DNA from: a virus
Lineage: Duplodnaviria; Heunggongvirae; Uroviricota; Caudoviricetes
IMG/VR virus record: IMGVR_UViG_2526164629_000027
DNA: 37,247 nucleotides
Reading direction: 5' to 3' (one strand)
Shown: piece after piece, positions 3,983-34,904 of the stretch
How the letters are laid out: the number at the start of each line of letters is the position of its first letter
Position numbering within the stretch: position 1 is the stretch's first letter
Notes under the pieces: model-generated
The model's database searches: none
Seen by the model: the letters and a program-made list of their open reading frames with translations, nothing else
Told to the model about the DNA's origin: nothing
Position numbers and translations under genes: made by a program

Positions 3983-4115
3983 TAGCTTAAACAAAACACC
4001 AGATTAAACCCGAAAACCTGAAAACTATCCGCATTCGCGGAGGTATTCGCACACGTAAATAACGGAGATATAAAATGAACGCAAAAGAAAAAATATTATC
4101 AATACATTAAAAATA

Positions 4116-4980: not shown

Positions 4981-5276
4981 GCACCATCAACCACCAGAAG
5001 CTACGCGAACTGGCATTTGCCCTGCAACGAATGGCAACTCCTCAAAAATTACTGGCATTTCGCGTAATGCTCTCGCCGTCTGCTGTGCTGGCACTGCTGG
5101 ATCAGCTGGAGCACGCCAAAACCACGGCTCCTGCCATTCGCCTGACGCTCCATCATGAAATCGCTGATTTCTGCGCAACGCTGGGGGCACCTGGCGAACC
5201 GGAAACGCCGGAAGCAATGCAGCAAGAGCTGCTGCAACGCATTGACAAGGTTTTTGATTTTTTTCTGAACCAGTAA
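4977..5276 (+). CDS. Hypothetical early protein
   Basis: 99 aa ORF; start overlaps the previous stop. Confidence 0.5.
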   Translation: MSTINHQKLRELAFALQRMATPQKLLAFRVMLSPSAVLALLDQLEHAKTTAPAIRLTLHHEIADFCATLGAPGEPETPEAMQQELLQRIDKVFDFFLNQ

Positions 5277-9066: not shown

Positions 9067-9876
9067 TCAACCTATCTTCTTATGAAGTAAAATTAATTTC
9101 TGTATTAATTTGGAATGAAACATAGATATATCAGAAATTCTTATTTCATTAGGCGAGTCTATATGATTGGAAACTTCTTCCTCCAAGGAGTCACAAATAC
9201 TTTCTAGATTTTCAATATCTGCATTTAATTCTGGAAAACTATTAAACAAATATAATGAATCCCGTAACTCTCCTAGTTTTGGTAAAAGAGTATTACTGAA
9301 TACACTAAGAAATTCCTCTTCTGATAATGCCATGGAGTTTTTAAAATTTTGCACAACATCGAATGCCAACCCATTAATTTTAGGCATAATTACTTCTCTT
9401 ACCCAATACCCTTCATTAATAGCTTCTTTACGTTCTTTTCTATGTTGAACACAAGGAATAACAAAGGATGAAACTAAAGCAAATAAAGAGATGCCAATAG
9501 AAATCCACTCTGGACCATTTTCCGGAACCTTTACAATATTATATATATCATAGGAATTTGGAACATCTTTGAAATAATTAGCAAATAAATCTTTTTTGTT
9601 ATCCCTTGCCAGAGATAACTTATGAAAGGTGTCGTTTGCCTTTTCACAAAACATCAAGCCATCATTCGGGTTTCCGGATAACAAAAACGGTGATGATATA
9701 CCACCAAGTCCTGAATCGGAAATATAAAAAGGCGTGTTTGGATAAAGTGACTCATTACATTCAATGTTTTCTTTGTTGGAAAAATCTGTCACAGAGCAAG
9801 CTGCGGGGAATATAAAAAAAATGACAGACAGCGCTGTCATTTTGATTTGAAAAATATTTTTAAAAGAAGGGAACAT
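9067..9876 (-). CDS. Cargo gene d: bitopic membrane protein (signal/lipoprotein-like N-terminus, central TM helix), unknown function
   Basis: 269 aa; about 30% GC; N-terminal hydrophobic segment ending in Cys (VIFFIFPAAC), central TM (WISIGISLFALVSSFVIPCV), acidic C-terminal domain; overlaps the end of gene c by 17 nt. Confidence 0.6.
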   Translation of the reverse strand: MFPSFKNIFQIKMTALSVIFFIFPAACSVTDFSNKENIECNESLYPNTPFYISDSGLGGISSPFLLSGNPNDGLMFCEKANDTFHKLSLARDNKKDLFANYFKDVPNSYDIYNIVKVPENGPEWISIGISLFALVSSFVIPCVQHRKERKEAINEGYWVREVIMPKINGLAFDVVQNFKNSMALSEEEFLSVFSNTLLPKLGELRDSLYLFNSFPELNADIENLESICDSLEEEVSNHIDSPNEIRISDISMFHSKLIQKLILLHKKIG

Positions 9877-10204
9877 TTTTATGTAAGCCTCTCCTTACAG
9901 CTCTATCTAATTCAGAAAGCATACCTTCTTTATATTCACGACCATCAAGTACAGTGCGACTATAAAATTCGCTAGGCGAAGAAAATTTCGGCAAAACCGT
10001 TTCAAGCATACCTAGAAAGTATGAGCTTGATACAACAATTCCCTTGGGGATCAATAGATATAATCTATCATTACTGGTTGTGCAAAATTTCCCTATATTA
10101 AAGTAATCATAGGCTTGGCGCCCATTAGAACGTCCTGCAAAAAGTTTCTTGTTACTATCTTTTACTAACTTATTGAAATCTATGGTGATGTCAGCCATTT
10201 TCAT
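9860..10204 (-). CDS. Cargo gene c: small protein with a STAS-like (anti-sigma-antagonist-like) Ser motif
   Basis: 114 aa; ATG with SD GAGGA; segment GIVVSSSYFLGML resembles the conserved phospho-Ser region of SpoIIAA/RsbV-type STAS domains (recognised by eye only). Confidence 0.55.
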   Translation of the reverse strand: MKMADITIDFNKLVKDSNKKLFAGRSNGRQAYDYFNIGKFCTTSNDRLYLLIPKGIVVSSSYFLGMLETVLPKFSSPSEFYSRTVLDGREYKEGMLSELDRAVRRGLHKNVPFF

Positions 10205-10214
10205 GTACCTGTCC

Positions 10215-11282
10215 TCAAGTTCGCTGGGTGGCGTTTTCTGGTAGAGGAAAACGAATATTGATCATAACTCCAGGAAATCGAGCATCCTTCATACGCTTAA
10301 GATAGTTGCGATCCGGTTCAGATTCAAGCCCTACATCATTAAAAGGGTAAGTAAAAATGTCACTTTCCTCGTCATTAACCAACCTTTGCTTTAATTTATA
10401 TGATCCATCAAAGTTAATATGAGTACTACCAGATATTAAAGTCATTTTTATCCCACCTTTAATATCTCTTCCCATTTTTTTAAGATTATCATGCATATCT
10501 TGAAATAACTTCAATAATTCAATTGTTCCGGTGCCAGAACTGTCAGTTTCTTTCTCGTTTTTACAACTCACCCGCCCTTGCAAGGCCGCTACTGTTGTTA
10601 ATCCTTCCTTAAACATACCCTTTTTCTTAATATGCTTATTTATGTATGGATTAACTTGTTGACTTAATGAAAAATGATCCTCAGGTAAATTATCAAAAGT
10701 TTCGCTGATAGTTTTCCCAAAATTGAAAACAGCCAACTCACATATGGGGTTTCGTACGTTATTATTAACAAAACCTCTCAAATACCAGCGTGGGCGTTGC
10801 TCTAACCCACAATGCCGCTCCGCATTATCAAGGAGTTCCCCCATGCAGGAAGTTAAATGCTTTTCTGCCTCATGTACAAGTTTTAAATTATGATCATTTA
10901 AGCATTCGTTTATGTATGCGGTAAATTTTTCAGCAGTGACATTTTTTCTGTCATGGGCAAAGGCAGAAGCATTCTCCTTTCCGATACTATCAGCAGAGAA
11001 GATTCGTTTCTTCGGATTCGCTTTTTTCGATGCTTCAGTAGAGTCCAGAACTTTACCTGGTGCAGCATTACTAATCTCTTTTACAAGCCCGACATCCCTG
11101 ATAATTTCAAGATACTGTTCATCTTTAGGGTAGATACCATTAATCTGAATCATCGTATCTTTGAAATTTATATTACTTTGCCTTGCTGCTGTAAGAGCAA
11201 CACCTAATAGACACTCAAGACCAAGACAGTGTTTTTGTTTTCTTGTAATCAAAAATATATGATTTCCATTTACCTCTTGCAA
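10215..11282 (-). CDS. Cargo gene b: GHKL (histidine-kinase-like) ATPase-domain protein
   Basis: 355 aa as listed (TTG start); the first in-frame ATG is at 11153; N-box-like GELLDNAERH (ExxxNAxxH) and Gly-rich DSSGTGTIELL segment; AT-rich. Confidence 0.55.
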   Translation of the reverse strand: MQEVNGNHIFLITRKQKHCLGLECLLGVALTAARQSNINFKDTMIQINGIYPKDEQYLEIIRDVGLVKEISNAAPGKVLDSTEASKKANPKKRIFSADSIGKENASAFAHDRKNVTAEKFTAYINECLNDHNLKLVHEAEKHLTSCMGELLDNAERHCGLEQRPRWYLRGFVNNNVRNPICELAVFNFGKTISETFDNLPEDHFSLSQQVNPYINKHIKKKGMFKEGLTTVAALQGRVSCKNEKETDSSGTGTIELLKLFQDMHDNLKKMGRDIKGGIKMTLISGSTHINFDGSYKLKQRLVNDEESDIFTYPFNDVGLESEPDRNYLKRMKDARFPGVMINIRFPLPENATQRT

Positions 11283-11688
11283 TTAATTTTGTGGCAGCAC
11301 TAATAAATAGCAGAGATTTCTCTGGATTGTCATATAAGTCAAAATATTTAGGTATTAATATCTTCTCTGCGTCACGACGAAGAATTGATGAGTCATACTC
11401 TTTTATAATCGATATATTTTCAATGAACGTAGCGACTTGGTTTTGGACAGGAGTTGTTTCATCGGAAAAACGAAGACTACCATTTTTCTCTTGCGCAGGC
11501 TTTTTTTTCTTAGCTCTCTCAACGCTACGAAGAAATCGCAACCATCCACGTAAAAAGGTTCTTTTAGAATCTTCTTTATTGATTTTTTTCATTTCCAAAT
11601 GTTCCTGCAAAGTTAACGTAGCCCACAAGGCGCTAAGTATACTTTCTGCTATATTTTTTTCACTATACAAATGCACAATAGTGCACAA
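11215..11688 (-). CDS. Cargo gene a: small basic protein, or N-terminal part of gene b if the two are one frameshifted ORF
   Basis: 157 aa from TTG, or 125 aa from the ATG at 11590-11592; Lys-rich; overlaps gene b by 68 nt in the -1 frame across several A/T runs. Confidence 0.4.
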   Translation of the reverse strand: MCTIVHLYSEKNIAESILSALWATLTLQEHLEMKKINKEDSKRTFLRGWLRFLRSVERAKKKKPAQEKNGSLRFSDETTPVQNQVATFIENISIIKEYDSSILRRDAEKILIPKYFDLYDNPEKSLLFISAATKLIARGKWKSYIFDYKKTKTLSWS

Positions 11689-11700: not shown

Positions 11701-12063
11701 TTTTTGAACGATTTTTTGCCCTTCCGGCCCGCATGGTGGCTGGATCCGTCAAGGATCCGTGCGTGCACAAAAAAACGCATTTTTTCTGCGCGCAGGTGAC
11801 GGGGGAACAGCCCGCGTTTCAGGGGGGGTAAACAGCATTCCCTGAACGATGTCGCAGAGACACAACAGAATGGCCATATTTCTCACGCTGAGCATGAAAA
11901 AGGCGTGAGGGCTTTTGATTTGATGGGGTGAAAGGTAAGGCCGTCAAAATCGCACTGAGGCAGCGAGAACATACAGTCAACGCGGTGGGATTGCGTAAGA
12001 GTCTGACCGTCGATGGTGGCGATAAACTGGAAGGCGTCGTGAAATTATCTGATTGATACAGGA

Positions 12064-12755: not shown

Positions 12756-13758
12756 CATCAAGAAGAGCATAAGAATTAAAACGGATCACCTCTTCGCCAA
12801 GCCAGTCATTGATGTGCTTCATGGCCTCCATAACGGGCATCAGCTCGTTAATTGCATAAACCCGCGCGGCCTTCTCCACATCACCAAACGCACTTTTTTC
12901 GCCCGGCATCGCCCCCATCAGTTGCGGCGGAACACGGTGCGCAGCCAGCACATCATCACGGGATGCCGCCTTAACATTCATGAACTCATCTTTTGCGGTG
13001 ATCTGCTGGAACGGCAAAATTTGCACCCCCTCTTTGCCCCCGTTGGGCGCATGAATGAGCACGTTTTTAAATGCACCACTACCACGTGCACCCTGTAATG
13101 TTTCTTTCAGGGAGTCCATGCTTTCGCGGTTTACCTGCGCTGCACCGATGTAGATGATGCACCCGGCGTGGGATCCGTTGTCGTAATACAGTTTTCTGAA
13201 CATGTCCGCCGAATGAGACAGGCTGGCCGAGAGTAATGCGCCGAGATATTCCGGCATGCCGTAGATTTCCTGGTTAATATCCGGATTCATCAGGTGGCAC
13301 ACTTTGCCAGGGCGAAACTGAAACGCGTCCTTGCCATCCTGCACATACCACCATGATTCAAGATCGCTTCCGCGTCGCATGTATTTCGCCAGTGCGTGCC
13401 GTAATTTAAGCGGTTCGCCGAGCATATTGCTTCGGAGCTCAAGGTATGCGTTACCGAACACAAACCAGTCCAGCGCCAGCGCCGAGAAATCCTGCCGGGA
13501 AAGCAGCGGGTGCGGAATATAGCAGCCGAGCAATACATTGCGCTTAAAGTAAAGCGCAGACTGATGCCAGGACGTTTGCCGGGCGGCTCTTGCCAGACCG
13601 TACCAGTCCACCGGGGTTTCATACCACCGCCCGTTATCAGCACAGTACATATTGTCCAGCAAATCATGCCCGGTCAGGCGATAAGGACCATCAAAAGTGA
13701 ATGCACTGAGCGACGATTCTTTCCTGAGCGCATCAGCGAGATCAATGCGTGAACTCAT
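12739..13758 (-). CDS. Q: Portal protein (P2 gpQ family)
   Basis: 339 aa from the ATG at 13756-13758 (the listed ORF extends upstream from a TTG); size and position (downstream of terminase, divergent from the capsid operon) match P2 Q. Confidence 0.85.
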   Translation of the reverse strand: MSSRIDLADALRKESSLSAFTFDGPYRLTGHDLLDNMYCADNGRWYETPVDWYGLARAARQTSWHQSALYFKRNVLLGCYIPHPLLSRQDFSALALDWFVFGNAYLELRSNMLGEPLKLRHALAKYMRRGSDLESWWYVQDGKDAFQFRPGKVCHLMNPDINQEIYGMPEYLGALLSASLSHSADMFRKLYYDNGSHAGCIIYIGAAQVNRESMDSLKETLQGARGSGAFKNVLIHAPNGGKEGVQILPFQQITAKDEFMNVKAASRDDVLAAHRVPPQLMGAMPGEKSAFGDVEKAARVYAINELMPVMEAMKHINDWLGEEVIRFNSYALLDEKTAP

Positions 13759-13783
13759 GCGCACTTTTTTATTTTTCTGCTCA

Positions 13784-15535
13784 TCAGAACTCCATAACCG
13801 TGAAACGCTCGTTTTCTCCTTCGCCGCCAATTGGTTCGTTAATGACAGCAAGCATGGTTGCCCACGCAAGGTCGCCGTGGCTGATCCCCCTCGCGCGGTC
13901 CGTTTCGTAAGTGATAAAACCGCCCGGTGTTTTCACCTTACGCACGGCGTTAAAGGCCGCGACCAGCTCGCGTTCGGCGCGATCGTATTCCCACCGCCCG
14001 GCACGCATTATTTGCAGCATTTTCAGTACCAGCGACCGTTTTGATGACAGCGTGAAGGTGTACGGAATAGCAGCAGGGAAAAACCGTTTCACTATCTGAT
14101 AAACAGCCTCCCCGTTCCCGCCCGTCACATCAATGCCGATGTGTTCCACGTTGTAGCGACACGTGAACTCTTCAATGACTCTGGCCTGTTCTTCAAACTC
14201 CAGCCCCTGAACGCGTCGCGTCTCCACCGTTCGAAAACGGCCACCAGGAACAGCCGGAGGAACCACCACAGACACAGCGCCGCTGTCGCCGTTGCCACTG
14301 CTGCCGTTTGCGTCATACCCAATCCATACCGGACGATTCCCCATCGGGCGGGGAGCAAAAGGTTTCCAGTCTTTCCAGTCGTCGTATCCGTCAACACCGC
14401 AGCCAATCAGGATATTCAGGTTAAATGCCGATTCCCCTTCGCGGACAAACTCACACATATAGAGATTGAGGAACTCGTCTTCGGTATTTTCATCACGAAT
14501 TTCGTCGATATCGGTGTGTTTCCAGCCGTGATTAACCACATCTTCCAGCGTGACAATTTGCCGCCACGTCCGGTCAGGGCAGATAAGCCCGTTATGCAGC
14601 GTATTCCAGTCCACAGAAAAACGCTGGCGTTTATGCGTGGCCTTTTTCTCGTTCCAGCGGTCGCCGTTCCAGTAGGCGTATGCTTCGTGCGTTTCGGTGG
14701 ATGGCGTGGAGAAGTAGGTGCGCCGCAGTCCGCTGAGGGTTGCCATAGCGCCAGCCACCTTGCGCAGTTCAGCAAAGCGACTGACCCAGAAAAATTCATC
14801 AAAATAAAAATTGCCCGTATAGGACTGCGCCGACGCAGCAGAAGTGCCGAGAAAATGCAGCTCTGCGCCGTTGGAGAGGATGATTTTATCGCCCCCTTTC
14901 AGCTCCACATCAACTTCAGCCGCAGCCTTCTGAATAATGCTTTTAAACTGGAACGCCTGACGACGCGACGCAGACAAAAAAATCTGGTTACGCTGGTAAG
15001 GTTGCGCCACATCGTCACGCAGCGCCATCAGCAGAGCTTCCTGTGCAAAATACCAGGTCGCCCCAATCTGTCGGGATTTCAGGATCATCCTGTTACGTAT
15101 CCCGGCTTCCCTGCAAAGGGTCAGGGAGTCAAACCAGCCCCGCTGATGCCACTCCAACCTGCTGATGATTTTTTCCCGCAGTGCGGAAATCTGTTCCGGC
15201 GTGAAATGATTTTTGAGTTTTTTCGCCCGGCCTTTCTTTCCTGCGGCCATCACATCCGGATGGCCATCATGCAGCTTTTTAAGCTGCCGGGTCAGCAGGT
15301 CTATTTCCTTAAAGTCACCGCCTGTTTTATTCTGTTTTTCAGTAAGCTGGATGAGGCGCGCATCGATGGACTGCGTGACACGCTGCACGGGTGGCGTTTC
15401 ATCCCACTGGTCGCGTTTTTTCCACGCATAAATCGTGTTCGGGTTTATTCCCATCAGACGTGATATTTCTGCGGGCGGATAACCCTGCCAGTAAAGTTGC
15501 CGCGCACGCTGGCGCACAAAAGCGTCCTGAATCAT
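13784..15535 (-). CDS. P: Terminase large (ATPase) subunit (P2 gpP family)
   Basis: 583 aa; N-terminus MIQDAFVRQRARQLYWQGYPPAEISRLMGINPNTIYAWKKRDQWDE matches the P2 gpP family; divergent from the scaffold/capsid operon. Confidence 0.9.
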   Translation of the reverse strand: MIQDAFVRQRARQLYWQGYPPAEISRLMGINPNTIYAWKKRDQWDETPPVQRVTQSIDARLIQLTEKQNKTGGDFKEIDLLTRQLKKLHDGHPDVMAAGKKGRAKKLKNHFTPEQISALREKIISRLEWHQRGWFDSLTLCREAGIRNRMILKSRQIGATWYFAQEALLMALRDDVAQPYQRNQIFLSASRRQAFQFKSIIQKAAAEVDVELKGGDKIILSNGAELHFLGTSAASAQSYTGNFYFDEFFWVSRFAELRKVAGAMATLSGLRRTYFSTPSTETHEAYAYWNGDRWNEKKATHKRQRFSVDWNTLHNGLICPDRTWRQIVTLEDVVNHGWKHTDIDEIRDENTEDEFLNLYMCEFVREGESAFNLNILIGCGVDGYDDWKDWKPFAPRPMGNRPVWIGYDANGSSGNGDSGAVSVVVPPAVPGGRFRTVETRRVQGLEFEEQARVIEEFTCRYNVEHIGIDVTGGNGEAVYQIVKRFFPAAIPYTFTLSSKRSLVLKMLQIMRAGRWEYDRAERELVAAFNAVRKVKTPGGFITYETDRARGISHGDLAWATMLAVINEPIGGEGENERFTVMEF

Positions 15536-16526: not shown

Positions 16527-16549
16527 TAAGACAAAGGAGCAAATTTTTT

Positions 16550-22525: not shown

Positions 22526-23422
22526 ATGCCCGCCGTTGACCTTTCCCAGTTACCGGAACCCGCCATCATCGCGGAGCCTGACTTTGAAGCAATTCTGGCT
22601 GACACAAAGGCCATGATGATTGCGTCCTATCCCGCCGAACAGCGTGAAGCCGTTTCCGCCGCGCTGGAGCTGGAGTCGGAACCCCTTAACGTTATCGCTC
22701 AAACCATGTCGTTTCGTGAAATGCTGTTACGCCAGCGGGTTAACGAGGGCGCACGCGCCTGTATGTTAAGCCACGGTTCAGGGACAAACCTGGACAACCT
22801 CGCGGGCAATATGAACACAAAGCGCCTGGTTATCACTCCGGCAACGGATACCACCGACGCGGTGATGGAGAGCGACACCTCGCTGAGACTGCGGGCGCAG
22901 CGGGCGTATGACGGCCTGAGTGTTGCTGGCCCGTCAGGTGCATACGAGTATTTTGCCCGCAGCGCCAGCGGTCTGGTGCGTGATGCGCGGGCTATCAGTC
23001 CGTCTCCGGCAAATGTGACGGTTTCCATCCTGTCCACAGAGGGCGACGGCACAGCAACGGAGGCGTTGCTTAATACCGTTCGCGCCGTTCTGAATGCAGA
23101 GGATACCCGCCCGGTGGCCGACCGCCTGACCGTACAGAGCGCCAGAATCGTGACATGGCGGCTGAATGCAAAACTGTACTTTTACCCCGGCCCGGAATCC
23201 GAACCTATTCTGGCTGCGGCTGAATCGTCATTCAGGAAGTGGCTGGCTGAACAGGGGCTTATCGGTCAGGACGTGGCGTTGTCCGCCATTGCTGCCGCAC
23301 TGCATGTGCACGGTGTGCAACGCGTGGAGATAATCGAACCCACACAGAATATGGCCATCAGCGACATACAGGCGGCGCGCTGTGAGTCATTCACCATCAG
23401 CGAAGGTGGGCGCAATGAGTAA
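22526..23422 (+). CDS. J: Baseplate protein J
   Basis: 298 aa; synteny with P2. Confidence 0.85.
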   Translation: MPAVDLSQLPEPAIIAEPDFEAILADTKAMMIASYPAEQREAVSAALELESEPLNVIAQTMSFREMLLRQRVNEGARACMLSHGSGTNLDNLAGNMNTKRLVITPATDTTDAVMESDTSLRLRAQRAYDGLSVAGPSGAYEYFARSASGLVRDARAISPSPANVTVSILSTEGDGTATEALLNTVRAVLNAEDTRPVADRLTVQSARIVTWRLNAKLYFYPGPESEPILAAAESSFRKWLAEQGLIGQDVALSAIAAALHVHGVQRVEIIEPTQNMAISDIQAARCESFTISEGGRNE

Positions 23423-23945
23423 TTCACTGTTACCGCCATCAGCCAGCAATTTCATGCGTTGCGCCGAAGCTGTCGGAGCGCGCATTACAGACATCCCGGT
23501 AGACCTCAACACGCTGTGGTCACCTGACACCTGCCCGGTGCATCTGCTGCCTTATCTCGCCTGGGCATTTTCCGTTGACCGCTGGGATCGCAACTGGCCG
23601 GAAGAGACAAAGCGACAGGTTATTCGTGATGCATGGCTTATACACCGACACAAAGGGACCATCAGCGCACTGCGCCGGGCCATTGAGCCGCTGGGATACC
23701 TCATTCGCGTGTCTGAGTGGTGGGAGTTCGGCGGAGAACCGGGAACATTTACCGTTGAAGTCGGCACGCTGGACAGTGGCGTGACGGAGGAAATGTATCT
23801 GGAAATGGAGCGGTTGATTGCTGATGCCCGCCCGGTCAGCCGCCACATGACAGGGCTGAATATCATTCAGGAAATTCCGGGGGATATTTTCGCAGCGGCG
23901 GCAACTTATGACGGTGAAGTTATTACCATTTATCCAGGCGATTAA
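23415..23945 (+). CDS. I: Baseplate/tail protein I
   Basis: Start at MSNSLLPPSASNF (ATG at 23415 overlapping the J end); synteny with P2. Confidence 0.8.
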   Translation: MSNSLLPPSASNFMRCAEAVGARITDIPVDLNTLWSPDTCPVHLLPYLAWAFSVDRWDRNWPEETKRQVIRDAWLIHRHKGTISALRRAIEPLGYLIRVSEWWEFGGEPGTFTVEVGTLDSGVTEEMYLEMERLIADARPVSRHMTGLNIIQEIPGDIFAAAATYDGEVITIYPGD

Positions 23946-23947
23946 GC

Positions 23948-24007
23948 ATGAGTACCACAACACGAAAATTTAAAACCGTTATCACCGATACGGGTGCAAA
24001 AAATTAG
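23948..24007 (+). other. H: 5' fragment of the tail-fibre gene H (19 codons) cut off from the main ORF by a frameshift in an A6 run
   Basis: ATG at 23948 gives [19 protein letters not shown]-stop; with one extra A in the run at 23998-24003 the frame continues as [28 protein letters not shown], which matches the P2 gpH N-terminus. Confidence 0.6.
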
Positions 24008-24051
24008 CTCAGGCAGCCGCGCCAGATGGTAAGCCTGTCCGCCTGACTCAT

Positions 24052-26409
24052 ATGGCCGTGGGCGACGGTGGCGGCGCGTTGCCCACACCAGACAGTAAGC
24101 AGACCCGTCTGGTGCATGAGGTGTGGCGACACACTGTTAATCGCGTCATCCTGGACGCAACACATCAGAACCGCATTATTGCGGAGCTGGTTATTCCTCC
24201 AGAAACGGGCGGATTCTGGATCCGGGAAATTGGTGTGTTTGATGAGCACGGCGATTTAATCGCGGTGGGCAATACTGCCGAAAGTTACAAGCCAGCCGTT
24301 GCCGAAGGGTCCGGACGTGCACAAACATTTCGCACCATTCTGACCGTATCCAGCACTGCCACTGTGGCGCTTACCGTGGATAACACCATGGTGATGGCCA
24401 CAGTGGATTACGTGGATAACAAACTGAAAGAGCATGAACAGTCACGATGTCACCCGGATGCCTCGCTGACCGCAAAAGGCTTTGTTCAACTCAGTAGCGC
24501 CACTAACAGCGATTCTGAAACGCTGGCTGCAACGCCGAAAGCGGTTAAGGTCGCGTATGATCTTGCTAACGGAAAATATACAGCGCAGGATGCCACAACA
24601 GCGCGAAAAGGCCTTGTCCAGCTTAGTAGTGCAACCAACAGTACATCTGAAACGCTGGCGGCAACGCCAAAAGCAGTTAAAGCAGCCAATGACAATGCGA
24701 ATAGCAGGGTGCCATCTAACCGAAAAGTTAACGGAAAAGCACTGACTGCGGATATAACATTAACGCCGAAAGATATTGGTACTTTAAATTCAGTAACGAT
24801 GTCTTTCTCTGGCGGGGCTGGGTGGTTCAAACTGGCTACGGTTACCATGCCACAAGCGAGTTCCATCGTTTACATCGCATTGATTGGTGGCGCTGGTTAC
24901 AACGTCGGTTCCCCACATCAGGCAGGCATTTCAGAACTGGTTCTACGAGCAGGCAATGGAAACCCCAAAGGAATTACCGGGGCTTTGTGGAAGCGTACAG
25001 CCGTCGGATTAACGAATTTCGCCTGGATCAACACATCCGGCGATACATATGATATTTACGTTGAGATTGGCAATTATGCGACGAGTGTAAATATCCATTG
25101 GGATTGTACTGCAAATGCGTCAGTTTCTGTTTATACCTCGCCAACATATTCAGCGAGTAAGCCTTCCAGCGTTACCTATGGTGTTGTTTATACGATGTAT
25201 AGCTCACATCAGAAACCTACACCATCAGATATTGGAGCACTGCCAACAACCGGAGGAACAGTTTCAGGTCCGTTGTCTGTTACAGGTGGATTAACTGGTT
25301 CATTGAATGGTAATGCAAGTACAGCCACGAAATTGCAGACGGCAAGATCTATCGGTGGAGTTGTTTTCGACGGTTCTGCAAATATTAACCTTCCAGGTGT
25401 AAACACTACGGGTAATCAGAACACCACTGGTAATGCTGCAACTGCTACAAAACTTCAGACTGCAAGAAAAATATCCGGTGTTCCATTTGATGGTTCTACT
25501 GATATCACTTTAACCGCCGCGCATGTGGCTGCTTTTGCCAGAAGGGCAACGGATACATATGCCGATGCGGATGGTGGCGTTCCCTGGAATGCCGAATCAG
25601 GCGCTTACAATGTCACCCGCTCTGGCGACACCTATATTCTGGTTAACTTCTATACCGGAGTCGGAAGTTGCCGGACCTTGCAGATGAAGGCACATTACAG
25701 AAATGGAGGTCTGTTCTACCGTTCCTCAAGAGATGGCTATGGTTTTGAGGAAGACTGGGCAGAAGTTTATACCTCGAAAAATCTTCCACCAGAAAGCTAC
25801 CCAGTCGGCGCACCAATCCCGTGGCCATCAGATACCGTTCCGTCTGGTTATGCCCTGATGCAGGGGCAGACTTTTGACAAATCTGCATACCCGAAACTTG
25901 CAGTCGCTTATCCGTCAGGCGTGATCCCTGATATGCGTGGCTGGACTATCAAGGGCAAACCTGCCAGTGGTCGTGCCGTATTGTCTCAGGAACAGGACGG
26001 CATTAAATCGCACACCCACAGCGCCAGCGCATCCAGTACTGATTTGGGGACGAAAACCACATCGTCGTTTGATTACGGTACTAAAACGACCAGTTCATTT
26101 GATTACGGCACAAAAACCACAAATAGCGCAGGAGCTCATTCACACAATATACCTGTTGGTCACACTGGCGCGGGGAATGGTGTATCAGCCGGTTATAACG
26201 CTGCGTTAGGTACTGGTACCACGTCGAGCGCAGGAGGGCATGCTCACAATGTACATATCGGTGCCCATAACCACACTATCGGCATTGGTGCTCATGCCCA
26301 TTCTGTCATTATTGGTCCCCACGGACACACCATCACCGTTAATGCTACGGGGAACGCAGAAAACACCGTAAAAAACATCGCATTTAACTATATTGTGAGG
26401 CTTGCATAA
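24052..26409 (+). CDS. H: Tail fibre protein (P2 gpH family); intact ORF from an internal Met, see frameshift fragment upstream
   Basis: 785 aa; N-terminal region MAVGDGGG...IAELVIPPE...AESYKPA matches the conserved P2 H domain; duplicated [21 protein letters not shown] motif; C-terminal tandem repeats and His-rich HxH repeats. Confidence 0.85.
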
Positions 26410-26804
26410 TGACATTCAGAATGAGTGAACAATCACGGACCATAAAAATTTATAATCTACTGACCGGAACCAATGAGTTTATTGGTGAAGGTGATGCATA
26501 CATTCCACCTCATACAGGTCTGCCTGCAAACAGTACCGATATTGCCCCGCCAGATATTCCGGCTGGCTTCGTGGCCGTTTTCAACAGTGATGAGGCATCG
26601 TGGCATCTCGTTGAAGACCATCGGGGTAAAACTGTTTATGACGTGGCATCAGGGGACTCGTTATTTATTTCTGAACTCGGTCCATTACCGGAAAATGTTA
26701 CCTGGTTGTCGCCGTATGGAGAGTATCAGAAGTGGAACGGCACATCCTGGGTGAAAGATGCAGAAGCAGAAAAACTGTTTCGGATAAGGGAGGCGGAAGA
26801 ATAA
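26409..26804 (+). CDS. G: Tail fibre assembly chaperone, N-terminal part (P2 gpG/Tfa family)
   Basis: 131 aa; position immediately after H; its conserved C-terminal Tfa region is in another frame. Confidence 0.7.
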
Positions 26805-26986
26805 AAAACAGCCTGATGCAGGTAGCCAGCGAGCATATTGCGCCACTTCAGGATGCCGTAGATTTGGATATTGCAACGGAGGAAGAGGCATCGTTACTGG
26901 CTGCATGGAAGACATACCGGGTATTGTTGAATCGTGTTAATACAGCGGTAGCAGCGGATGTTGAGTGGCCAGTCGCCCCACAATAA
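26732..26986 (+). CDS. Tail fibre assembly chaperone, C-terminal conserved region in a different frame (frameshifted continuation of G)
   Basis: Translation ...[61 protein letters not shown] matches conserved Tfa C-termini; no credible independent start. Confidence 0.5.
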
Positions 26987-27029: not shown

Positions 27030-27635
27030 CTATTTATACAATACAACACCGCTCTTTTTAGTTATATATGTGCAGTTCGATGGTATATCTTTATTTATAA
27101 AAGACATTGCACCTATTTTTACATTATCCCCAATTTTACGTGATAATCCAATGATGCAACAATTAGCTCCGATATCAACGTTACTACCAATTTTTACTCT
27201 TGAACCAGGCATGTCACCATCTATCTGTCCAATGGTAGTATTCTGTCGTAACACCAGATTTTCACCAGCATCAACAGCAAAATGAACAACAATTCCAGCA
27301 TGATGGGGAATTGTTAACCCTTTTCCAATATTTGCGCCCAATCCAATTTCACAACCAAATTTGTTAATTATTTTACTGTTCAACTTTTTGGCTGCTTTCT
27401 TATGTAATTTATTACCATTAATATACATTTCGTTAGCCAACCGCCACCAGAAAAGGAAATTCCGGTTACGCTGTTTTTTCTCTCTTAAAAGCCTCCAGAT
27501 ATCCATACGTTTCCGCCGAATTACTTCATATTTCCAGAAGTTTTTTAAATTAGTAGAGTTCCCAAATAAAACAAAGTGAATTGCCATTAAGTAAGACAGC
27601 ACGATAATCTCCTTAATTATTATTTCAGACCACAC
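27030..27635 (-). CDS. Hexapeptide-repeat acyl/acetyltransferase (left-handed beta-helix family), cargo gene
   Basis: 201 aa (GTG start; alternative ATG at 27587); hexapeptide-like repeats (IGANCCIIGLSRKIGDNVKIG, IGQIDGDMPGSRVKIGSNVDIG); markedly AT-rich. Confidence 0.75.
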   Translation of the reverse strand: MWSEIIIKEIIVLSYLMAIHFVLFGNSTNLKNFWKYEVIRRKRMDIWRLLREKKQRNRNFLFWWRLANEMYINGNKLHKKAAKKLNSKIINKFGCEIGLGANIGKGLTIPHHAGIVVHFAVDAGENLVLRQNTTIGQIDGDMPGSRVKIGSNVDIGANCCIIGLSRKIGDNVKIGAMSFINKDIPSNCTYITKKSGVVLYK

Positions 27636-27758: not shown

Positions 27759-28253
27759 TCAGAGCAGCCCCTTAACTGAGCTGGCCGCGCTATTAAGGGA
27801 TGATGTCACCTTATCTTTGAAGCCGGACAACATATCGCTGAACGATGAGGATTGCAGGCGCTCCCGCAAATCCTCATCACAGCGTTCAAGAGTCAGTGAA
27901 AATTCTATCTTTTTCGCTTTACCGTAGCGATCAAACTCGGAACGGGTCGTATTCGTTTCGGTCAGGACATACATGCCGTAAATCTGCCCGACGCCATCAA
28001 TCAGAGGCCAGGGCCGTCCTGTATACGCCTGCGTGGTCAGCAGAGACAGCGACACTTCGCCACCTGTAATTTCAGGATAAAGCACACCAGAAAGAACGAT
28101 GCGGTCATCACCTGCACCGATATACTGCCAGCTTGCTGAACGGTTAACGCGTTCATTTTTCACATGCCGCCAGCTTTTATTTTGCTGTAACTGCTGATGC
28201 GGCAATGTGCGCAGCTCAAAAACAAACATGCCGTAGATCATCATCATGGCCAT
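27759..28253 (-). CDS. U: Tail protein U
   Basis: 164 aa; immediately downstream of the tape-measure gene on the same strand. Confidence 0.75.
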   Translation of the reverse strand: MAMMMIYGMFVFELRTLPHQQLQQNKSWRHVKNERVNRSASWQYIGAGDDRIVLSGVLYPEITGGEVSLSLLTTQAYTGRPWPLIDGVGQIYGMYVLTETNTTRSEFDRYGKAKKIEFSLTLERCDEDLRERLQSSSFSDMLSGFKDKVTSSLNSAASSVKGLL

Positions 28254-28259
28254 GACTCC

Positions 28260-31103
28260 TCAATCTTTATCGCAAAAACTGCCACGCCCGGCACGGGCGC
28301 GCCGTTCCATTTCTGCCCTGACCATTTCACCGACCAGTTTCGCCAGTTCGCGGGGATTCTGCGTAACAACGTTATGCAGATGAACATGAATTTCACCGCC
28401 AAATCCGGAGACAACAGGCTCCCGGTTACGGGAAGTTGCAGGAACTGATGCCACTGGCGATCGTATGGCCTCCGCCACCGGGCGGGAGCTGGCCGCAACA
28501 ACAGGGACCAGCGCCGGAGGCAGAGGAGTCGGGACCACGGGTGTGATGTTGATTGCGGAAGCAGGCTTACTGACCTGCGCAATCTTCCGCTCCTGCCACT
28601 CCCCACGAACGGCAAGTGCGCGGGGCAGGTTCTTAAAGACAATATCGCCGGGGCCAATACGTTTTTTCGTCTCATCAACCAGCTTACCTGTGTTATCAGC
28701 AATTTTGCTGAGTCTGCGTAGCGTACCGGTATTGCTGTCTGTGAGCGGTTTGTTGTCTTTGGGTTTATCGCCTCCGGTGCCATTGCCATTTTCCGCAGAC
28801 TTCGGCGGATTGATTTTCGCAATGTCTCCCTGAAACAGAGCAACCTTGTCCTGAAGAATGGCCGCACGCTGTGCGTCTTCGATTTTCTTGCGCGCCCTTT
28901 CCGCTTCATCCGGAAGCACACCGAGCTTTTCAAGTATCCACGCCAGCGTATCCAGCAACATTTTTGCAGGTGTAAGAACAAGTTGTAACGCACCGCCAAG
29001 AACGTTACCGAATATCTCGCCAGCACTGGTACATTTATCCAGCGTTTCCTTGCTGGACTCCATCGGTGACAGCAGCGATTTAAACCAGTTAAACACCTGG
29101 CTTATCCCGCTTCCGATTGCGTCAAAAACAGGACCAAACCGTTCAAAGGTTTCGCGCAACGGGGTCAGCCTTTCCATAATCCCGCTGAACACCCCGGCAA
29201 AAAATGCCCTGATGGGATCCCAGTATTTCCAGATAAGAACGGCAGCTCCGGCAAGCGCAGCCACGATAAGACCAACCGGACTGAACAACGCCCCGATAGC
29301 GCCTCCCAGTAAAGAAACGGAACCCGTCACCATTCCCCATAGTGCTGGCAGAACCCTGACAGCATTCATTGATCCGGTCAGGAGGGAAAAACCAAGACGC
29401 AGTTTTGCCAGCGGGCCAGCAAGCACACCAATAGCCAGCGACAACGAGCCAACCGTTGCAGTCATTGCCAGCAGTGCACCGCCTGCAATCAGTAGCTGGC
29501 GCGTCAGTGCGGGATGGGCCTGCGCCAGCGCCGTCACCTTTGATACCACTCGCGTGAGCCACTGCGTGACAGAACGCAGCGGACCGTCAATCAGATCTGC
29601 AATGCGGATGCGCAACCCTTCCCATGCACTGCTGAGTGATTTCAGATCGCCGTCAAGGTTGTTGGCCATAACCTTTGCCGTGCGTTCAGCCTCACCGCGC
29701 GCGCCTTCAAGTTCTTTTCTCAGTTTGGGTAAGGAGCCGTTACCTGCCGCATCAACGAGGGCCATAAATGATGTGAAAGCCTCTTCTCCTGCAATGTCCT
29801 TAAAGAACGATACCCGGTCAACTTCCCCGTATTTGCGGGTAGCTTTATAAAGGTCAGCCAGCACATCCTCCATCGGGCGCATTTTGCCCCCGGCATCCGA
29901 GACAGACACGCCAAGCTCTTTCAGCGCCTCTGCTGCCGCCTTTGGCGGTGATGCCAGACGAGCCAGGCTGGCACGCATTGCCGTACCAGCATCACTCCCC
30001 CTGATACCCATATTCGCCAGCACGCCCGCCATCGCTGCGGCCTGCTCCAGCGATATTCCCAGCTTACCCGCCACCGGACCTGCATATTTCATGGTTTCGC
30101 CCAGCGCGCGAAGGTCAGTGTTAGTACGGGTAAACGCTGCTGTAAGCGTGTCACCGACCCGGTCCATCTGGTCAGCGGAGAGGCCGAACTGCGTCAGGAT
30201 ATTTGAGCCAATATCCGCCGTCTCGCCAAGGTCCATACCGCCAGCCGTTGCCATGCTCAGCACGCCCGGAAGCGCAGCCTGAATGGCCTGCGGTGTGAAG
30301 CCAGCCATTGCAAGAAATGCCTGCCCACTGGCGGCATCGCCTGCGGTGAACTGCGTTTCAGAGCCAAGTTTTAACGCCTGCTCACGCAGCGCCTTAAACT
30401 GCGGGCTGTTTTTGTCGATTCGCGTCAGTGCCTGAACGCGGGACATCTCTTTCCCGAACCCGATCGCAGGCTGCAAAAAACGCCCGGCAGCATAGCCGCC
30501 CGCCGCTGCCGCACCAATTGCCAGCGCACCACCTGTTTTCAGTTTTTCCGCTGTTTCCTGCGCGCGCGAATACCGCTCACGCGCCCGCGTTACACGCGCA
30601 AGCGCCTGCCGTTCGCGTTCAAGCTGGTTGTTGTATTGTTCGGTGCGTCTGATGGCCTGCTGGATGGTGTTATCGCTGCCTGTCAGGGAAATGCCGTGGC
30701 GTTTCAGCTCTCCGCCAAGCTCCCGCATTTTCTGAATTTCCCGTGTGCGCGATTCATTCAGGCGTTCAAGCCGGGTGCTTAACTGCTGCATCAGCTTTTG
30801 TTGTTTTTCGCTGAGCACTGTACCCGTGCGTTGTAACTGATTAAGGGCGTTAAGCTGGCGTCGTGCTTTCACGATGCCCGCATCCGCTTTACTGACAGCG
30901 TCGCGGGCGCGCTCAAATGATCGCGCCTGACGCTCGAGATTTTTGATCGCCCCCTGCGTTCGCTGGATGGAGTCACCAAACTGCCCCATCAGGCGGCGGG
31001 CGTTTTCGGCAGGCCGGGTCAGCCTGTCAACGGCGCTGAAAGCGACCCGGATATCAAGAGTCTTCATTGTCTGCATTCCCGCTGCGAAGTGCCGCCCGCT
31101 CAC
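28260..31103 (-). CDS. T: Tail tape measure protein (P2 gpT family)
   Basis: 947 aa; long helical/coiled N-terminal region, Gly/Ala-rich hydrophobic middle; true start may be the ATG at 31076 or 31067. Confidence 0.9.
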   Translation of the reverse strand: MSGRHFAAGMQTMKTLDIRVAFSAVDRLTRPAENARRLMGQFGDSIQRTQGAIKNLERQARSFERARDAVSKADAGIVKARRQLNALNQLQRTGTVLSEKQQKLMQQLSTRLERLNESRTREIQKMRELGGELKRHGISLTGSDNTIQQAIRRTEQYNNQLERERQALARVTRARERYSRAQETAEKLKTGGALAIGAAAAGGYAAGRFLQPAIGFGKEMSRVQALTRIDKNSPQFKALREQALKLGSETQFTAGDAASGQAFLAMAGFTPQAIQAALPGVLSMATAGGMDLGETADIGSNILTQFGLSADQMDRVGDTLTAAFTRTNTDLRALGETMKYAGPVAGKLGISLEQAAAMAGVLANMGIRGSDAGTAMRASLARLASPPKAAAEALKELGVSVSDAGGKMRPMEDVLADLYKATRKYGEVDRVSFFKDIAGEEAFTSFMALVDAAGNGSLPKLRKELEGARGEAERTAKVMANNLDGDLKSLSSAWEGLRIRIADLIDGPLRSVTQWLTRVVSKVTALAQAHPALTRQLLIAGGALLAMTATVGSLSLAIGVLAGPLAKLRLGFSLLTGSMNAVRVLPALWGMVTGSVSLLGGAIGALFSPVGLIVAALAGAAVLIWKYWDPIRAFFAGVFSGIMERLTPLRETFERFGPVFDAIGSGISQVFNWFKSLLSPMESSKETLDKCTSAGEIFGNVLGGALQLVLTPAKMLLDTLAWILEKLGVLPDEAERARKKIEDAQRAAILQDKVALFQGDIAKINPPKSAENGNGTGGDKPKDNKPLTDSNTGTLRRLSKIADNTGKLVDETKKRIGPGDIVFKNLPRALAVRGEWQERKIAQVSKPASAINITPVVPTPLPPALVPVVAASSRPVAEAIRSPVASVPATSRNREPVVSGFGGEIHVHLHNVVTQNPRELAKLVGEMVRAEMERRARAGRGSFCDKD

Positions 31104-31217
31104 GCCAGCTAACCACTTCGCCGGGCGTCATCATGAAGATTTCGGCGGGCGACCAGTTAAAAATGGCGGCAATATCCGCCACAAAGTCTTCTATGTACTC
31201 AAAGCACACAACCGTGA

Positions 31218-31583
31218 TCAGGCTTCCGTCGCCTGTTCGTTCTTCCCGCCAGAGTCCGCACCGCTCAAAAAATTTACGGCAACCACACATAACTGAATAA
31301 AGTCACGGGATGCCATTTTTTTGATCGTCACTTCATCCAGTCGCGGTGATGTCACGCGTGACAGCAGCGTAAACATGGATTCCGCTTTCAGATTCAGCAC
31401 ATCAGACAGCGACAAATCTCGCAGAGATCCAGCCTGCTCAATAGCCCCGGTGATCTCCACATACGTGATTTTTTCGCCGCCTCGCTCAATTGGTTGGGTA
31501 AGTTTTACGCCACGCTCACTGGTTTCTTTCACAGTGTCAGTAACTACCGTGTTTTCGGTATCGATGTTTTTCGTCTCTTTCAT
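31218..31583 (-). CDS. E: Tail assembly chaperone E; E+E' extension to 31054 by programmed -1 frameshift
   Basis: 121 aa with SD AGGAG; contains the slippery heptamer T TTT TTG in frame (VNFL); the -1 frame continues as ...FFERCGLWREERTG... to a stop at 31054, overlapping the T start. Confidence 0.8.
   Translation of the reverse strand: MKETKNIDTENTVVTDTVKETSERGVKLTQPIERGGEKITYVEITGAIEQAGSLRDLSLSDVLNLKAESMFTLLSRVTSPRLDEVTIKKMASRDFIQLCVVAVNFLSGADSGGKNEQATEA
31266..31272 (-). promoter_or_regulatory. Programmed -1 ribosomal frameshift slippery site (TTTTTTG) for E/E'
   Basis: Heptamer read as AA-T TTT TTG in the E frame; the same heptamer is used by P2 E/E'. Confidence 0.75.
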
Positions 31584-31637
31584 CAGGAAACTCCTTTCAG
31601 TCAGAGGCGACGCACTGCGCCGCCTGCATATTACTTA

Positions 31638-32150
31638 TCAACCAAGCCCAAGCGCGGAACGGATACGGTCAGGCACAATGTCCTTGCCGTCCTTCCGGTA
31701 AATGAAGTTCAGCAGGTCAATCTCCCACAACGGGCGATCGTTAACACTCAGCTTGTAGTAGGTGTTTTTAATGGCGTAAGTGTGTGATGTGGCTTCGCCC
31801 TGTTTGGCTTCCCCCATATCAATTTCCGTCACACGTCCGCGCATCTCGATTTCATACAGATCGCTTTCTGCATCGGTGTAGTATTCACCCGCAAAACGCA
31901 GCAGCGTGCCGTCAATCGTGCCGCCATATTTAAGGAACAGCGCACGAACAGCTCCCCCCATAACAAAACTCGCATCAAGCGCGGAGTCGTCCAGACCGAG
32001 ATCAATACTTACCGCCCCCATCATGCCACCACCACGATAGCTGTCGGTTTTGCGCGTCAGTTTAGGCAGGGTGACGGACGTCACCTTACCCACTTCGTTT
32101 TCACCATCCACAAACAGCGTAAAAAAGCGAAGATGTTTTGGTACAGCCAT
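31638..32150 (-). CDS. FII: Tail tube protein (P2 gpFII family)
   Basis: 170 aa; follows the sheath gene with start/stop overlap. Confidence 0.85.
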   Translation of the reverse strand: MAVPKHLRFFTLFVDGENEVGKVTSVTLPKLTRKTDSYRGGGMMGAVSIDLGLDDSALDASFVMGGAVRALFLKYGGTIDGTLLRFAGEYYTDAESDLYEIEMRGRVTEIDMGEAKQGEATSHTYAIKNTYYKLSVNDRPLWEIDLLNFIYRKDGKDIVPDRIRSALGLG

Positions 32151-33334
32151 CAGACACCTCCCAGCACCGCAAATGCGGGACCAAAGAATTCATCAGTAAA
32201 CGACTGGTAAAGCTCCATGTCTTCCAGCGGGGGAACAGGCGTATATTTGTAGCGAATACGCACACGCCCCTGACGTAAATTCGTGGTGCCGTTATCCACC
32301 ACGTCATACCAGCACGACGCCCCAATCAGTTTCCCGGCAGTAACCAGTGAATCCAGTTTTGCCCTGATGGCACTGATAACATCTTTCACGTTCGCAGGCG
32401 TCAGTGGACTGTCGATGGTTTCAAACTGCGCTTCCGCAATTGAATCAGCCAGCACCTGTGCGGTTCGGGTATACACCTCAAAGATGTAGGCGTTCGTTTC
32501 CGGTGTGCGGTTGCCCCAGAAGCGGAACCCGTTGCGACGAATAATGGTCGTGATTTCTTTGTTGTTGAGGCTGTTGGCATCGCTGTCTTCGGCCTGCAAC
32601 GACCAGAACACATGCCTGGACATCCCCAGCACATTTTTAACCGGAACGTTGGACAGTGATTTGTGCCATCCCTGCTCATGGTCAATGTACGCACGAAGGC
32701 CGCACGCATAGGCAGGCGCGGGGAACGTTTCGTTTTTGCCACTTTTCGGGTTGTAGGCGATGAAGTCCGGCCATAAGAGCATCACCTCACGTTCGTTGAA
32801 TTTCTGGCGGTAGGTAATCACCTCAGCCATCGTGTTACAGCCGTGACATGAGGCATACACAAACGCGCGCAGTTTACCCGCAATCACGCACAGGGATTTT
32901 GTCACCGCCTCCGTGTCCAGCTCCGGCGCGGCCAGAATACGCGGACGGTATCCGATGCTTTCATCCTGCTCTGCAACAAGCAGCGCATACATCCCCGTAT
33001 AGCTGCCGTCAGATTCAGAACCACCGATAACCAGTTGATCCTGCGTCTTTCCGTCTTCTTCTTTGTGTTCAGCCACGCGAACGACGATCACCTTTGTGCT
33101 CACCTGGTCTGCGATGGCCTTAAGCGCACGATAAAGCGTCCCCGTTGTCCCGCATTTTCCCAGCACGTCATTGACGCGGGTCAGCAGTGTGGGCTTGTTC
33201 AGCGGGAACAGCTTCGCGTCCGCATCATCCGCCGTTGCCACGATACCGATAACGCTGGAATCAACATCGTTAATCGCTGTTACCAGGTCGGTATTTTCCG
33301 TAACACGGGCACCATGAAAACGAGTTTCACTCAT
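32150..33334 (-). CDS. FI: Contractile tail sheath protein (P2 gpFI family)
   Basis: 394 aa; size and position match P2 FI. Confidence 0.9.
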   Translation of the reverse strand: MSETRFHGARVTENTDLVTAINDVDSSVIGIVATADDADAKLFPLNKPTLLTRVNDVLGKCGTTGTLYRALKAIADQVSTKVIVVRVAEHKEEDGKTQDQLVIGGSESDGSYTGMYALLVAEQDESIGYRPRILAAPELDTEAVTKSLCVIAGKLRAFVYASCHGCNTMAEVITYRQKFNEREVMLLWPDFIAYNPKSGKNETFPAPAYACGLRAYIDHEQGWHKSLSNVPVKNVLGMSRHVFWSLQAEDSDANSLNNKEITTIIRRNGFRFWGNRTPETNAYIFEVYTRTAQVLADSIAEAQFETIDSPLTPANVKDVISAIRAKLDSLVTAGKLIGASCWYDVVDNGTTNLRQGRVRIRYKYTPVPPLEDMELYQSFTDEFFGPAFAVLGGV

Positions 33335-33491: not shown

Positions 33492-34601
33492 ATGACCGAT
33501 ACCACCATGCAATTGCTCAGTCAGGGCACAGACCCCGTGAAAATGCCGGATTTTGATATTCTCGCGGAGGGTAAAACGCTGTCAGGCGTGGCAGAGCGCC
33601 TGATGAGCCTGTCACTGACCGACAACCGGGGATTTGACGCGGACCAGCTCACCATCACGCTGGATGATGCGGATGGTCAGTTGCAGCTACCGCCACGGGG
33701 CACGCGCCTGACGGTTCTCATTGGCTGGAAAGGAGAACCGCTGACAGAAAAAGGCACTTACATTGTTGATGAAATCGCTCACGAAGGACCGCCGGACAGG
33801 CTGACTGTTTCAGCCAGAAGCGCAGATTTTCGGGATGAATTTAACGTTAAACGTGAGGTGTCCTGGCATGATGTGACCGTTGAGCGTGTGGTATCCGCCA
33901 TCGCTCATCGGTATGGTCTGAAACCGCAAATCAGCGAAATGCTGATGGATATCGAAATCGACCACGCCGACCAGACCGAAGAAAGCGACATGTCCTTCCT
34001 TACGCGCATGGCGGAAATGCTGGGCGCAATCACCACGGTAAAAAGCGGTAATCTGTTATTCATTATGCCAGGCGGTGGCGTGAACGCACAGGGCCAGCCG
34101 TTGCCATCGTTCGCCATCACGCGCAGCAGTGGCGATCGCCATCAGTTCCGCATTGCTGACCGCGAAGCGTATACGGGGGTACGCGCTTACTGGCTTGATC
34201 TTAATTACGGGAAAAAGAAAAAAGTCAGCGTGAAACACCGCAAACCGCCAAAACCCAAAAAGGAGAAAAGCAGCAGCCGTGAAGGTGATTATATGGAAGG
34301 CGCGGAAGGCAATGTGTTTGTGTTACGCAAGACTTATCAGAACGAGCAGGCAGCAAGACGCGCAGCGGCGGCAAAGTGGCAGCAGCTACAACGCGGAGCC
34401 GCATCATTCTCCATCACGCTGGCATGTGGTCGTGCAGAACTCTACCCCGAAATGCATGGCACGGTAACAGGATTTAAAAGCGAGATTGATAATCAGGACT
34501 GGATTATTGCAAAAGCCGAGCACACCATCGATAACAGCGGCTTTACCACGCAGCTTGAGCTTGAGGCAAAAATCCCGGAATGGATAGCAGAAACAGAGTG
34601 A
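33492..34601 (+). CDS. D: Tail protein D (late control gene D family)
   Basis: 369 aa from the ATG at 33492 with SD GGAGGG; the listed ORF begins 132 nt upstream at a non-ATG start. Confidence 0.8.
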   Translation: MTDTTMQLLSQGTDPVKMPDFDILAEGKTLSGVAERLMSLSLTDNRGFDADQLTITLDDADGQLQLPPRGTRLTVLIGWKGEPLTEKGTYIVDEIAHEGPPDRLTVSARSADFRDEFNVKREVSWHDVTVERVVSAIAHRYGLKPQISEMLMDIEIDHADQTEESDMSFLTRMAEMLGAITTVKSGNLLFIMPGGGVNAQGQPLPSFAITRSSGDRHQFRIADREAYTGVRAYWLDLNYGKKKKVSVKHRKPPKPKKEKSSSREGDYMEGAEGNVFVLRKTYQNEQAARRAAAAKWQQLQRGAASFSITLACGRAELYPEMHGTVTGFKSEIDNQDWIIAKAEHTIDNSGFTTQLELEAKIPEWIAETE

Positions 34602-34643
34602 GCAACTTAGAATAGCAGCAGCACCACGTTAAGGGAGGTCGCT

Positions 34644-34904
34644 ATGTTCCGTTGTCCGCTTTGTGGCGCATCTGCCCGTATCCGCACCAGTCGTCCGGAA
34701 AATGATTCAAACACCGTGCGGCAAAAGTATTACCAGTGTAACAACCTGGAATGCGGCGTATGCTTCTCAACACTGGAAGCTTTCCATAAATTCACATCAA
34801 AACACACCTCCGGCGTTCACTCTTCAGAAGGTATCCCGTGGCATGAGCTGCCAGCTTCACACAGGGGAAACAATCAGATGAGTTTGCCTTTACCTCAGAA
34901 TTAA
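34644..34904 (+). CDS. ogr: Ogr/Delta-family zinc-finger late-gene transcription activator
   Basis: 86 aa; MFRCPLCGASARIRTSRP...YYQCNNLECGVCF with C-x2-C-x22-C-x4-C spacing as in P2 Ogr / 186 B. Confidence 0.85.
   Translation: MFRCPLCGASARIRTSRPENDSNTVRQKYYQCNNLECGVCFSTLEAFHKFTSKHTSGVHSSEGIPWHELPASHRGNNQMSLPLPQN

Follow-up and report, generated by a model that had tools for sequence, protein, structure and literature searches.

The tail-fibre assembly gene tfa of a P2-like prophage lacks a single adenine that all its intact relatives carry, and the resulting split of the gene is very probably a homopolymer sequencing artefact of an old draft assembly in an ordinary gene. This judgement draws on sequence comparisons across the window (the whole stretch of DNA that was analysed, 37,247 nucleotides). 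If the small share due to a repeat-induced consensus error is counted in, we hold an artefact of one kind or the other with still somewhat greater confidence. In the living strain, tfa would most likely be a single ORF of 192 codons. One A of the run GAAGAAATAAAAAAC was very probably under-called in the draft assembly; the loss creates a TAA and puts the conserved C-terminal domain in the -1 frame. This would be one of six single-base A/T homopolymer under-calls in the 37-kb window.

The tfa gene and its two pieces

The window is a P2-like prophage with an integrase gene at its left end and ogr, hok, three tRNA genes and pgsA at its right end (Table 1). Gene tfa lies directly downstream of the tail-fibre gene gpH, which ends at position 26409 where tfa starts (TAATG overlap). 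The ORF opens with ATG at 26409 (plus strand) and runs for 131 codons to a TAA at 26802-26804, while the conserved C-terminal region of Tfa is read in the -1 frame as 61 codons and a stop. The preliminary description had placed the stop of the gene at 26804 and the C-terminal region in another frame, and both the ORF reading and the Pfam halves bear this out. The first ATG of the 3' frame is at 26816, and a 56-aa product is for this reason annotated separately in the deposit; this piece matches Caudo_TAP (PF02413) positions 76-131 with E=8.8e-23. Both pieces, as well as the repaired protein, exceed the gathering cut-off of PF02413 (22.1 bits). Because the two pieces cover complementary parts of a single Pfam profile, the 3' piece is no chance ORF and the split is a true feature of the deposited sequence.

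With one A restored, the gene encodes the 192-aa protein of its relatives (...REAEE-I-KNSLMQ..., REAEEIKNSLMQ), which spans the whole Caudo_TAP profile with 133.4 bits. Its C-terminal 65 residues align to residues 113-174 of Mu gpU (PDB 5YVQ chain B), and the repaired gene is 88% identical in DNA to tfa of lambda. In the deposited window, the two stretches of the profile (positions 1-69 and 76-131) stand in different frames; in the isogenic assembly GCA_026221475.1 and in all complete genomes examined, they lie in one continuous ORF. Judged by its sequence, tfa appears to be an ordinary tail-fibre assembly chaperone gene of the lambda-Tfa, P2-gpG and Mu-gpU type in a P2-like E. coli prophage. 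As outlined in a summary of work on this family, such chaperones consist of a variable N-terminal domain, which binds the fibre, and a conserved helical domain at the C-terminus, which brings about trimerisation and correct assembly (PMC9608196, summarising North et al. 2019). If the deletion were true, the stop after residue 131 would delete the conserved C-terminal domain, and an inactive chaperone would be expected.

Table 1 Coordinates of the features of the prophage and of the one-base deletions (true run length -> run length in the window)
Feature	Position	Strand	Description
Integrase gene	4-1002		left end of the prophage
A7 -> A6	4088-4093	+	about codon 4 of the 138-aa early-region (cargo) gene
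Three cargo genes	9070-11592	-	269, 112 and 459 aa; between replication gene gpA and the portal gene
T6 -> T5	11233-11237	-	459-aa cargo gene
T5 -> T4	11239-11242	-	459-aa cargo gene
T6 -> T5 (coding strand A6 -> A5)	13773-13777	-	portal gene, codons 4-5
J-I-H-tfa block	22526-26986	+	
gpH tail-fibre gene	23948..26409	+	split near its 5' end at the A6 run; stop after 19 codons, remaining frame open to 26409
A7 -> A6	23999-24004	+	gpH
tfa 5' part	26409..26804	+	variable N-terminal domain and start of the Caudo_TAP profile; PF02413 positions 1-69, 33.4 bits
A3 -> A2, site of the missing base	26800..26801	+	tfa; AA in the window, AAA in all intact relatives, GAAGAA[A]TAAAAAAC
tfa 3' part	26801..26986	+	-1 frame; conserved C-terminal helical domain; PF02413 positions 76-131, E=8.8e-23, 81.3 bits
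A6 run adjoining the junction	26803..26808	+	unaltered in the window; cut to A5 in the DEC8C-labelled draft AIGH01
Serine-acetyltransferase-like gene	27033-27602	-	190 aa, hexapeptide repeat; between tfa and gpU
Sheath, tube, E, tape-measure, U block	27762-33334	-	inverted relative to the J-I-H-tfa and D-ogr blocks
D-ogr block	33492-34901	+	

Position of the missing base

Alignment with intact relatives places the indel in the short run GAAGAAATAAAAAAC, which reads GAAGAATAAAAAAC in the window; it alters the length of this one mononucleotide run and nothing else. The preliminary description had pointed to an A5 and an A6 run at the junction. Both runs are present (26770-26774 and 26803-26808), but neither is altered relative to the relatives, and the comparison with intact Tfa homologues that it had proposed for locating the junction led instead to the three-base run at 26800-26801. 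The closest complete genome, that of E. coli 2014C-3011, is 99.89% identical over 6.6 kb with just two gaps, namely the A3 -> A2 change in tfa and an A7 -> A6 change near the start of gpH. The suspicion that the adjacent fibre gene is frameshifted as well was therefore correct. At the 5' run of gpH (window 23948-24052), the window has A6, where the isogenic assembly and near relatives have A7, or C plus A6. A gpH product of 785 aa in other assemblies was rejected as evidence, being a contig-start effect.

Many unrelated short-read assemblies have contig ends or starts no more than about 15 nt from the tfa domain junction (window 26801-26815), the ends at ...GAAGAAA or at 26804 and the starts at 26815. 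These breaks suggest a repeat or mosaic boundary, and they generate large numbers of partial Tfa entries in protein databases. The conserved C-terminal half of tfa is common to different prophages of one genome and the N-terminal half is specific. Such a boundary might itself produce an error, if reads from paralogous tfa copies of other prophages, diverging exactly here (ATA versus ACA), had been mixed into the consensus and had led to the loss of one base. The contig breaks within 15 nt of the site agree with this explanation, as do the median of two tfa-like places per E. coli genome and the presence of T or C at position 26802 among close tfa copies. We nevertheless regard it as quite unlikely: a k-mer re-assembly gives the same sequence with no break, its contig L006 spanning the tfa site, and the other five deletions resemble that of tfa in kind and lie away from repeat boundaries, so that a single common cause is more economical.

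Six one-base deletions relative to an isogenic assembly

Over the compared positions 3784-32804, the window is 100% identical to the draft contig AIGY01000034.1 (GCA_000250175.2), whose H and tfa-fragment proteins bear the strain label E. coli DEC11D. We compared window positions 3788-36067 (32.3 kb) with contig DAJXQS010000001.1 from the independent assembly GCA_026221475.1 and found no substitution and exactly six one-base gaps. The base is always absent from the window and always belongs to an A/T run, the true run lengths being 7, 6, 5, 6, 7 and 3 (in the order of Table 1). A/T runs of four or more account for 5.2% of the bases, and five of the six deletions fall in them. All five broken genes are intact in GCA_026221475.1, where they encode a Tfa of 192 aa, a gpH of 820 aa, a portal protein of 348 aa and proteins of 459 and 138 aa. 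The 459-aa gene is split by two adjacent runs on the minus strand that are each one base short (T6-G-T5 -> T5-G-T4). In the portal gene (window 13757-13785, minus strand), one A is lost in codons 4-5 (ATGAGCAGAAAAATAAAAAAGTGCGCATGA), and the portal protein of the deposit consequently starts at an internal Met, with 339-341 aa instead of 348. Thirteen relatives carry A7 at 4088-4093. The window has A6 there, as do some indel-rich assemblies and the AIHI01 draft, which belongs to the neighbouring accession series, and one Logan contig shows A8; mis-sizing recurs at this hot spot and gives rise to the same 124-aa ORF in data sets unrelated to one another.

Six indels without a single substitution, all of them deletions in A/T runs, form by their sequence pattern a signature of homopolymer under-calling and not a pattern of natural divergence. 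The alternative of systematic homopolymer errors, which the preliminary description had raised, gains support from these deletions and from the disagreements between assemblies of the strain's reads described below. Co-inactivation of the fibre module, its other suggestion, is left unsupported, since only two of the six deletions lie in fibre genes and the rest lie in the portal gene and two cargo genes. The six-deletion pattern is typical of pyrosequencing-type data; the DEC collection was, we presume, sequenced at least partly by 454.

Not every difference in run length is an error. The runs G7 (11823-11829) and T6 (at about 16544, 16544-16549), both in intergenic DNA, differ from 98%-identical relatives (G5 and T5) yet are common to the isogenic assembly; they are genuine run-length polymorphisms, which count against the artefact reading of tfa to that extent and served as a control against calling every run difference an error. 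A first run-length census against the 98%-identical relatives was discarded as an over-count, as the differences at 2458, 11822 and 16544 were found in other relatives or in the isogenic assembly.

Distribution of the deletion among data sets

A stop-terminated Tfa of 131 aa was found in two places only, the AIGY01 deposit and a Logan re-assembly of the run SRR096436, which by its sequence identity appears to be the strain's own read set. Other exact matches to the 131-aa Tfa were rejected as independent occurrences: they are contig-end partials ending ...GAAGAAA and are therefore uninformative on the frameshift. The possibility that homologues naturally end at this position with a separate gene downstream thus found no counterpart, because the 131-aa database proteins are such partials, apart from the strain's own data. 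Neither of the two tfa deletion alleles (DEC11D and DEC8C) occurred among 5,426 complete E. coli genomes. The junction was present in 397 and 220 complete genomes in the two allele searches, with best matches 98.8% identical and one gap, and all of these genomes are annotated with a single tail fiber assembly protein. The AAA allele is also found in independent data sets with zero to four substitutions (Logan SRR25477052, ERR144904, GCA_034369145.1 and strain 2014C-3011). Among isogenic or near-identical prophages, tfa is intact in GCA_026221475.1, AIGZ01, SRR25477052 and ERR144904, and the lesion was reproduced in none of these four data sets, which are separate from that of DEC11D. We observe directly the deletion, its exact site, its restriction to the data of this strain and the assembly's error signature; from here we infer that the reads, rather than the DNA, are wrong.

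The run length is unstable in the SRR096436 reads, since the Logan re-assembly and the deposit disagree at three homopolymers: T7/T6 at about 5258 (5258-5264), T7/T6 at about 31316 (31316-31322) and A6/A5 at about 34223 (34218-34223). At all three, the deposit matches the close and isogenic assemblies compared. Two drafts with neighbouring accession prefixes each carry a different private homopolymer deletion of their own. The AIGZ01 draft differs from the window by one SNP in 12.8 kb and has intact gpH and tfa, with a private A6 -> A5 change that splits gpD. In the AIGH01 draft, where the tfa fragment bears the label DEC8C, comparison with a complete genome over 6.2 kb gave one indel only, an A6 -> A5 change in the tfa run next to that of the window. 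As a side observation, two chromosome-scale assemblies show the same false-pseudogene problem, LR134238.1 (L028) with at least 17 one-base indels in short runs and UGFH01000002.1 (L033) with at least one and a split tyrP; integrase, gpA and tyrP are among the genes hit.

The main rival explanation is a true, strain-private 1-bp deletion, which would make tfa a genuine pseudogene. Without its conserved C-terminal domain, Tfa would no longer support fibre folding, and with gpH frameshifted as well the fibre module would be dead. The Logan re-assembly of SRR096436, an independent k-mer re-assembly of apparently the same read set, reproduces the A2 of the deposit unbroken across the site; A2 is therefore the majority call in the reads and no slip of an assembler. 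Furthermore, the run is three bases long, an unusual place for a consensus-level homopolymer error and much less error-prone than the 5-7-mers hit elsewhere, so that tfa is the least typical of the six events. Prophage fibre genes do decay, as in the stf frameshift of lambda PaPa, annotated in database matches and cited in the portion of the literature drawn on here (PMC9608196). Against a real deletion stand the six deletions without substitution in 32.3 kb relative to an otherwise identical assembly, which are far from a natural mutation spectrum and all of one type and in one direction. The A2 allele is moreover absent from all complete genomes and all other data sets, both fibre genes are intact in the very similar AIGZ01 assembly, and homopolymer length is demonstrably unstable in the SRR096436 reads. 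With no substitution in 32 kb, we estimate that well below 0.1 real private indels would be expected, and with an error of about 3% in A/T runs of at least five, one error among the approximately 630 three-base A/T runs is plausible. On this balance a real deletion is unlikely.

Recoding and phase variation

A biological role of the split was also considered. The A-rich interdomain linker might serve for programmed frameshifting or slippage, or act as a contingency locus, in which case the split form would be an OFF or alternative state under regulation. The 1-bp deletions of DEC11D and DEC8C differ and lie no more than 8 nt apart, and in intact tfa an in-frame A_AAA_AAC heptamer lies at the domain linker, followed by a -1 frame that is open for 43 codons (L041 9082-9660, minus strand; window 26799-26809). 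However, an open -1 frame of 43 codons is expected by chance at about 10%, and the heptamer with its open frame is probably fortuitous, as no other observation speaks for a function. In the window allele, no slippery X_XXY_YYZ heptamer precedes the TAA in the zero frame (context GCG GAA GAA TAA), and recoding was rejected from the sequence itself on this ground. The frame change needed is -1, so that a +1 shift at the stop would be no help, and slippage in the A6 run cannot remove the stop because the run lies after the T of TAA. Shifted alleles were found in 0 of the 397 and 0 of the 220 complete genomes that hold the junction, homologues do not conserve the two-frame layout, and the drafts in which the two shifted alleles occur have neighbouring accessions and are labelled as DEC strains. 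Recoding or phase variation is accordingly extremely unlikely. We give very little credence to the reading that the linker GAAGAAATAAAAAAC is truly hypermutable (a contingency tract) or a site of recoding, switching the full chaperone on and off, with the DEC11D (A3 -> A2) and DEC8C (A6 -> A5) alleles as two real OFF states.

Other regions of the prophage

The interval between gpA and the portal gene is a variable cargo region in P2-like phages, and in the window it holds three cargo genes for which the gene tables record no Pfam match and PADLOC gave no hit. The serine-acetyltransferase-like gene occupies a further cargo position between tfa and gpU, and the PADLOC scan of the cargo genes, including this one, likewise returned no hits. 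The order of the P2 genes is colinear, unlike the block from sheath to U here, which is inverted relative to its neighbours (Table 1). Because this arrangement is common to every relative whose tail region was retrieved, and because gpD is an intact ORF of 369 aa in the window, the inverted tail block is a lineage feature and not damage. An inverted FI-U block with a truncated gpD was for the same reasons rejected as a sign of a dead prophage.

Consequences for the use of the draft records

The comparison serves as a quality flag for AIGY01000034.1, AIGH01 and AIGZ01, in which homopolymer under-calls would create false pseudogenes; in the window alone these would be tfa, gpH, the portal gene and two cargo genes. 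A defective prophage, an inactivated fibre module or recoding deduced from these records would be wrong, and the truncated proteins of these drafts persist in protein databases, where they form short, spurious entries for tail fiber assembly proteins. Were the deletion true after all, it would amount to no more than an ordinary loss-of-function mutation, private to the strain, in the chaperone of a prophage.

Comparison with known systems

The repaired tfa resembles lambda Tfa, P2 gpG and Mu gpU in matching the whole PF02413 profile, in its modular plan and in its position directly after, and overlapping, the fibre gene. The deposited tfa differs from them in having its two domains in different frames, and in nothing else. 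Its tail-morphogenesis chaperone in two overlapping frames is reminiscent of the programmed -1 frameshift of tail assembly chaperones such as lambda G/GT and P2 E/E'. In contrast to these, tfa has no slippery heptamer before its stop, and its two-frame layout is not conserved in homologues. Tfa also belongs to a different protein family, with a role in fibre folding and not in chaperoning of the tape measure.

The stf gene of lambda PaPa is a parallel in that there too, in a strain kept in a laboratory or collection, a one-base deletion has left a gene of the fibre module as two ORFs (Hendrix and Duda 1992). That case is a verified heritable lesion in the fibre gene itself, whereas the tfa lesion is confined to one data set and stands among five other homopolymer deletions. 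The pattern as a whole shares most features with the homopolymer under-calls of 454, Ion Torrent or unpolished long-read data: single bases are lost from A/T runs in one direction with no substitutions, conserved genes are broken, the losses are not reproduced in other data sets, and run lengths vary between re-assemblies. Other assemblies, some of them visibly indel-rich, likewise mis-size the A7 run at 4088 (A6 or A8). The tfa event departs from such under-calls in one respect, its three-base run being shorter than is typical.
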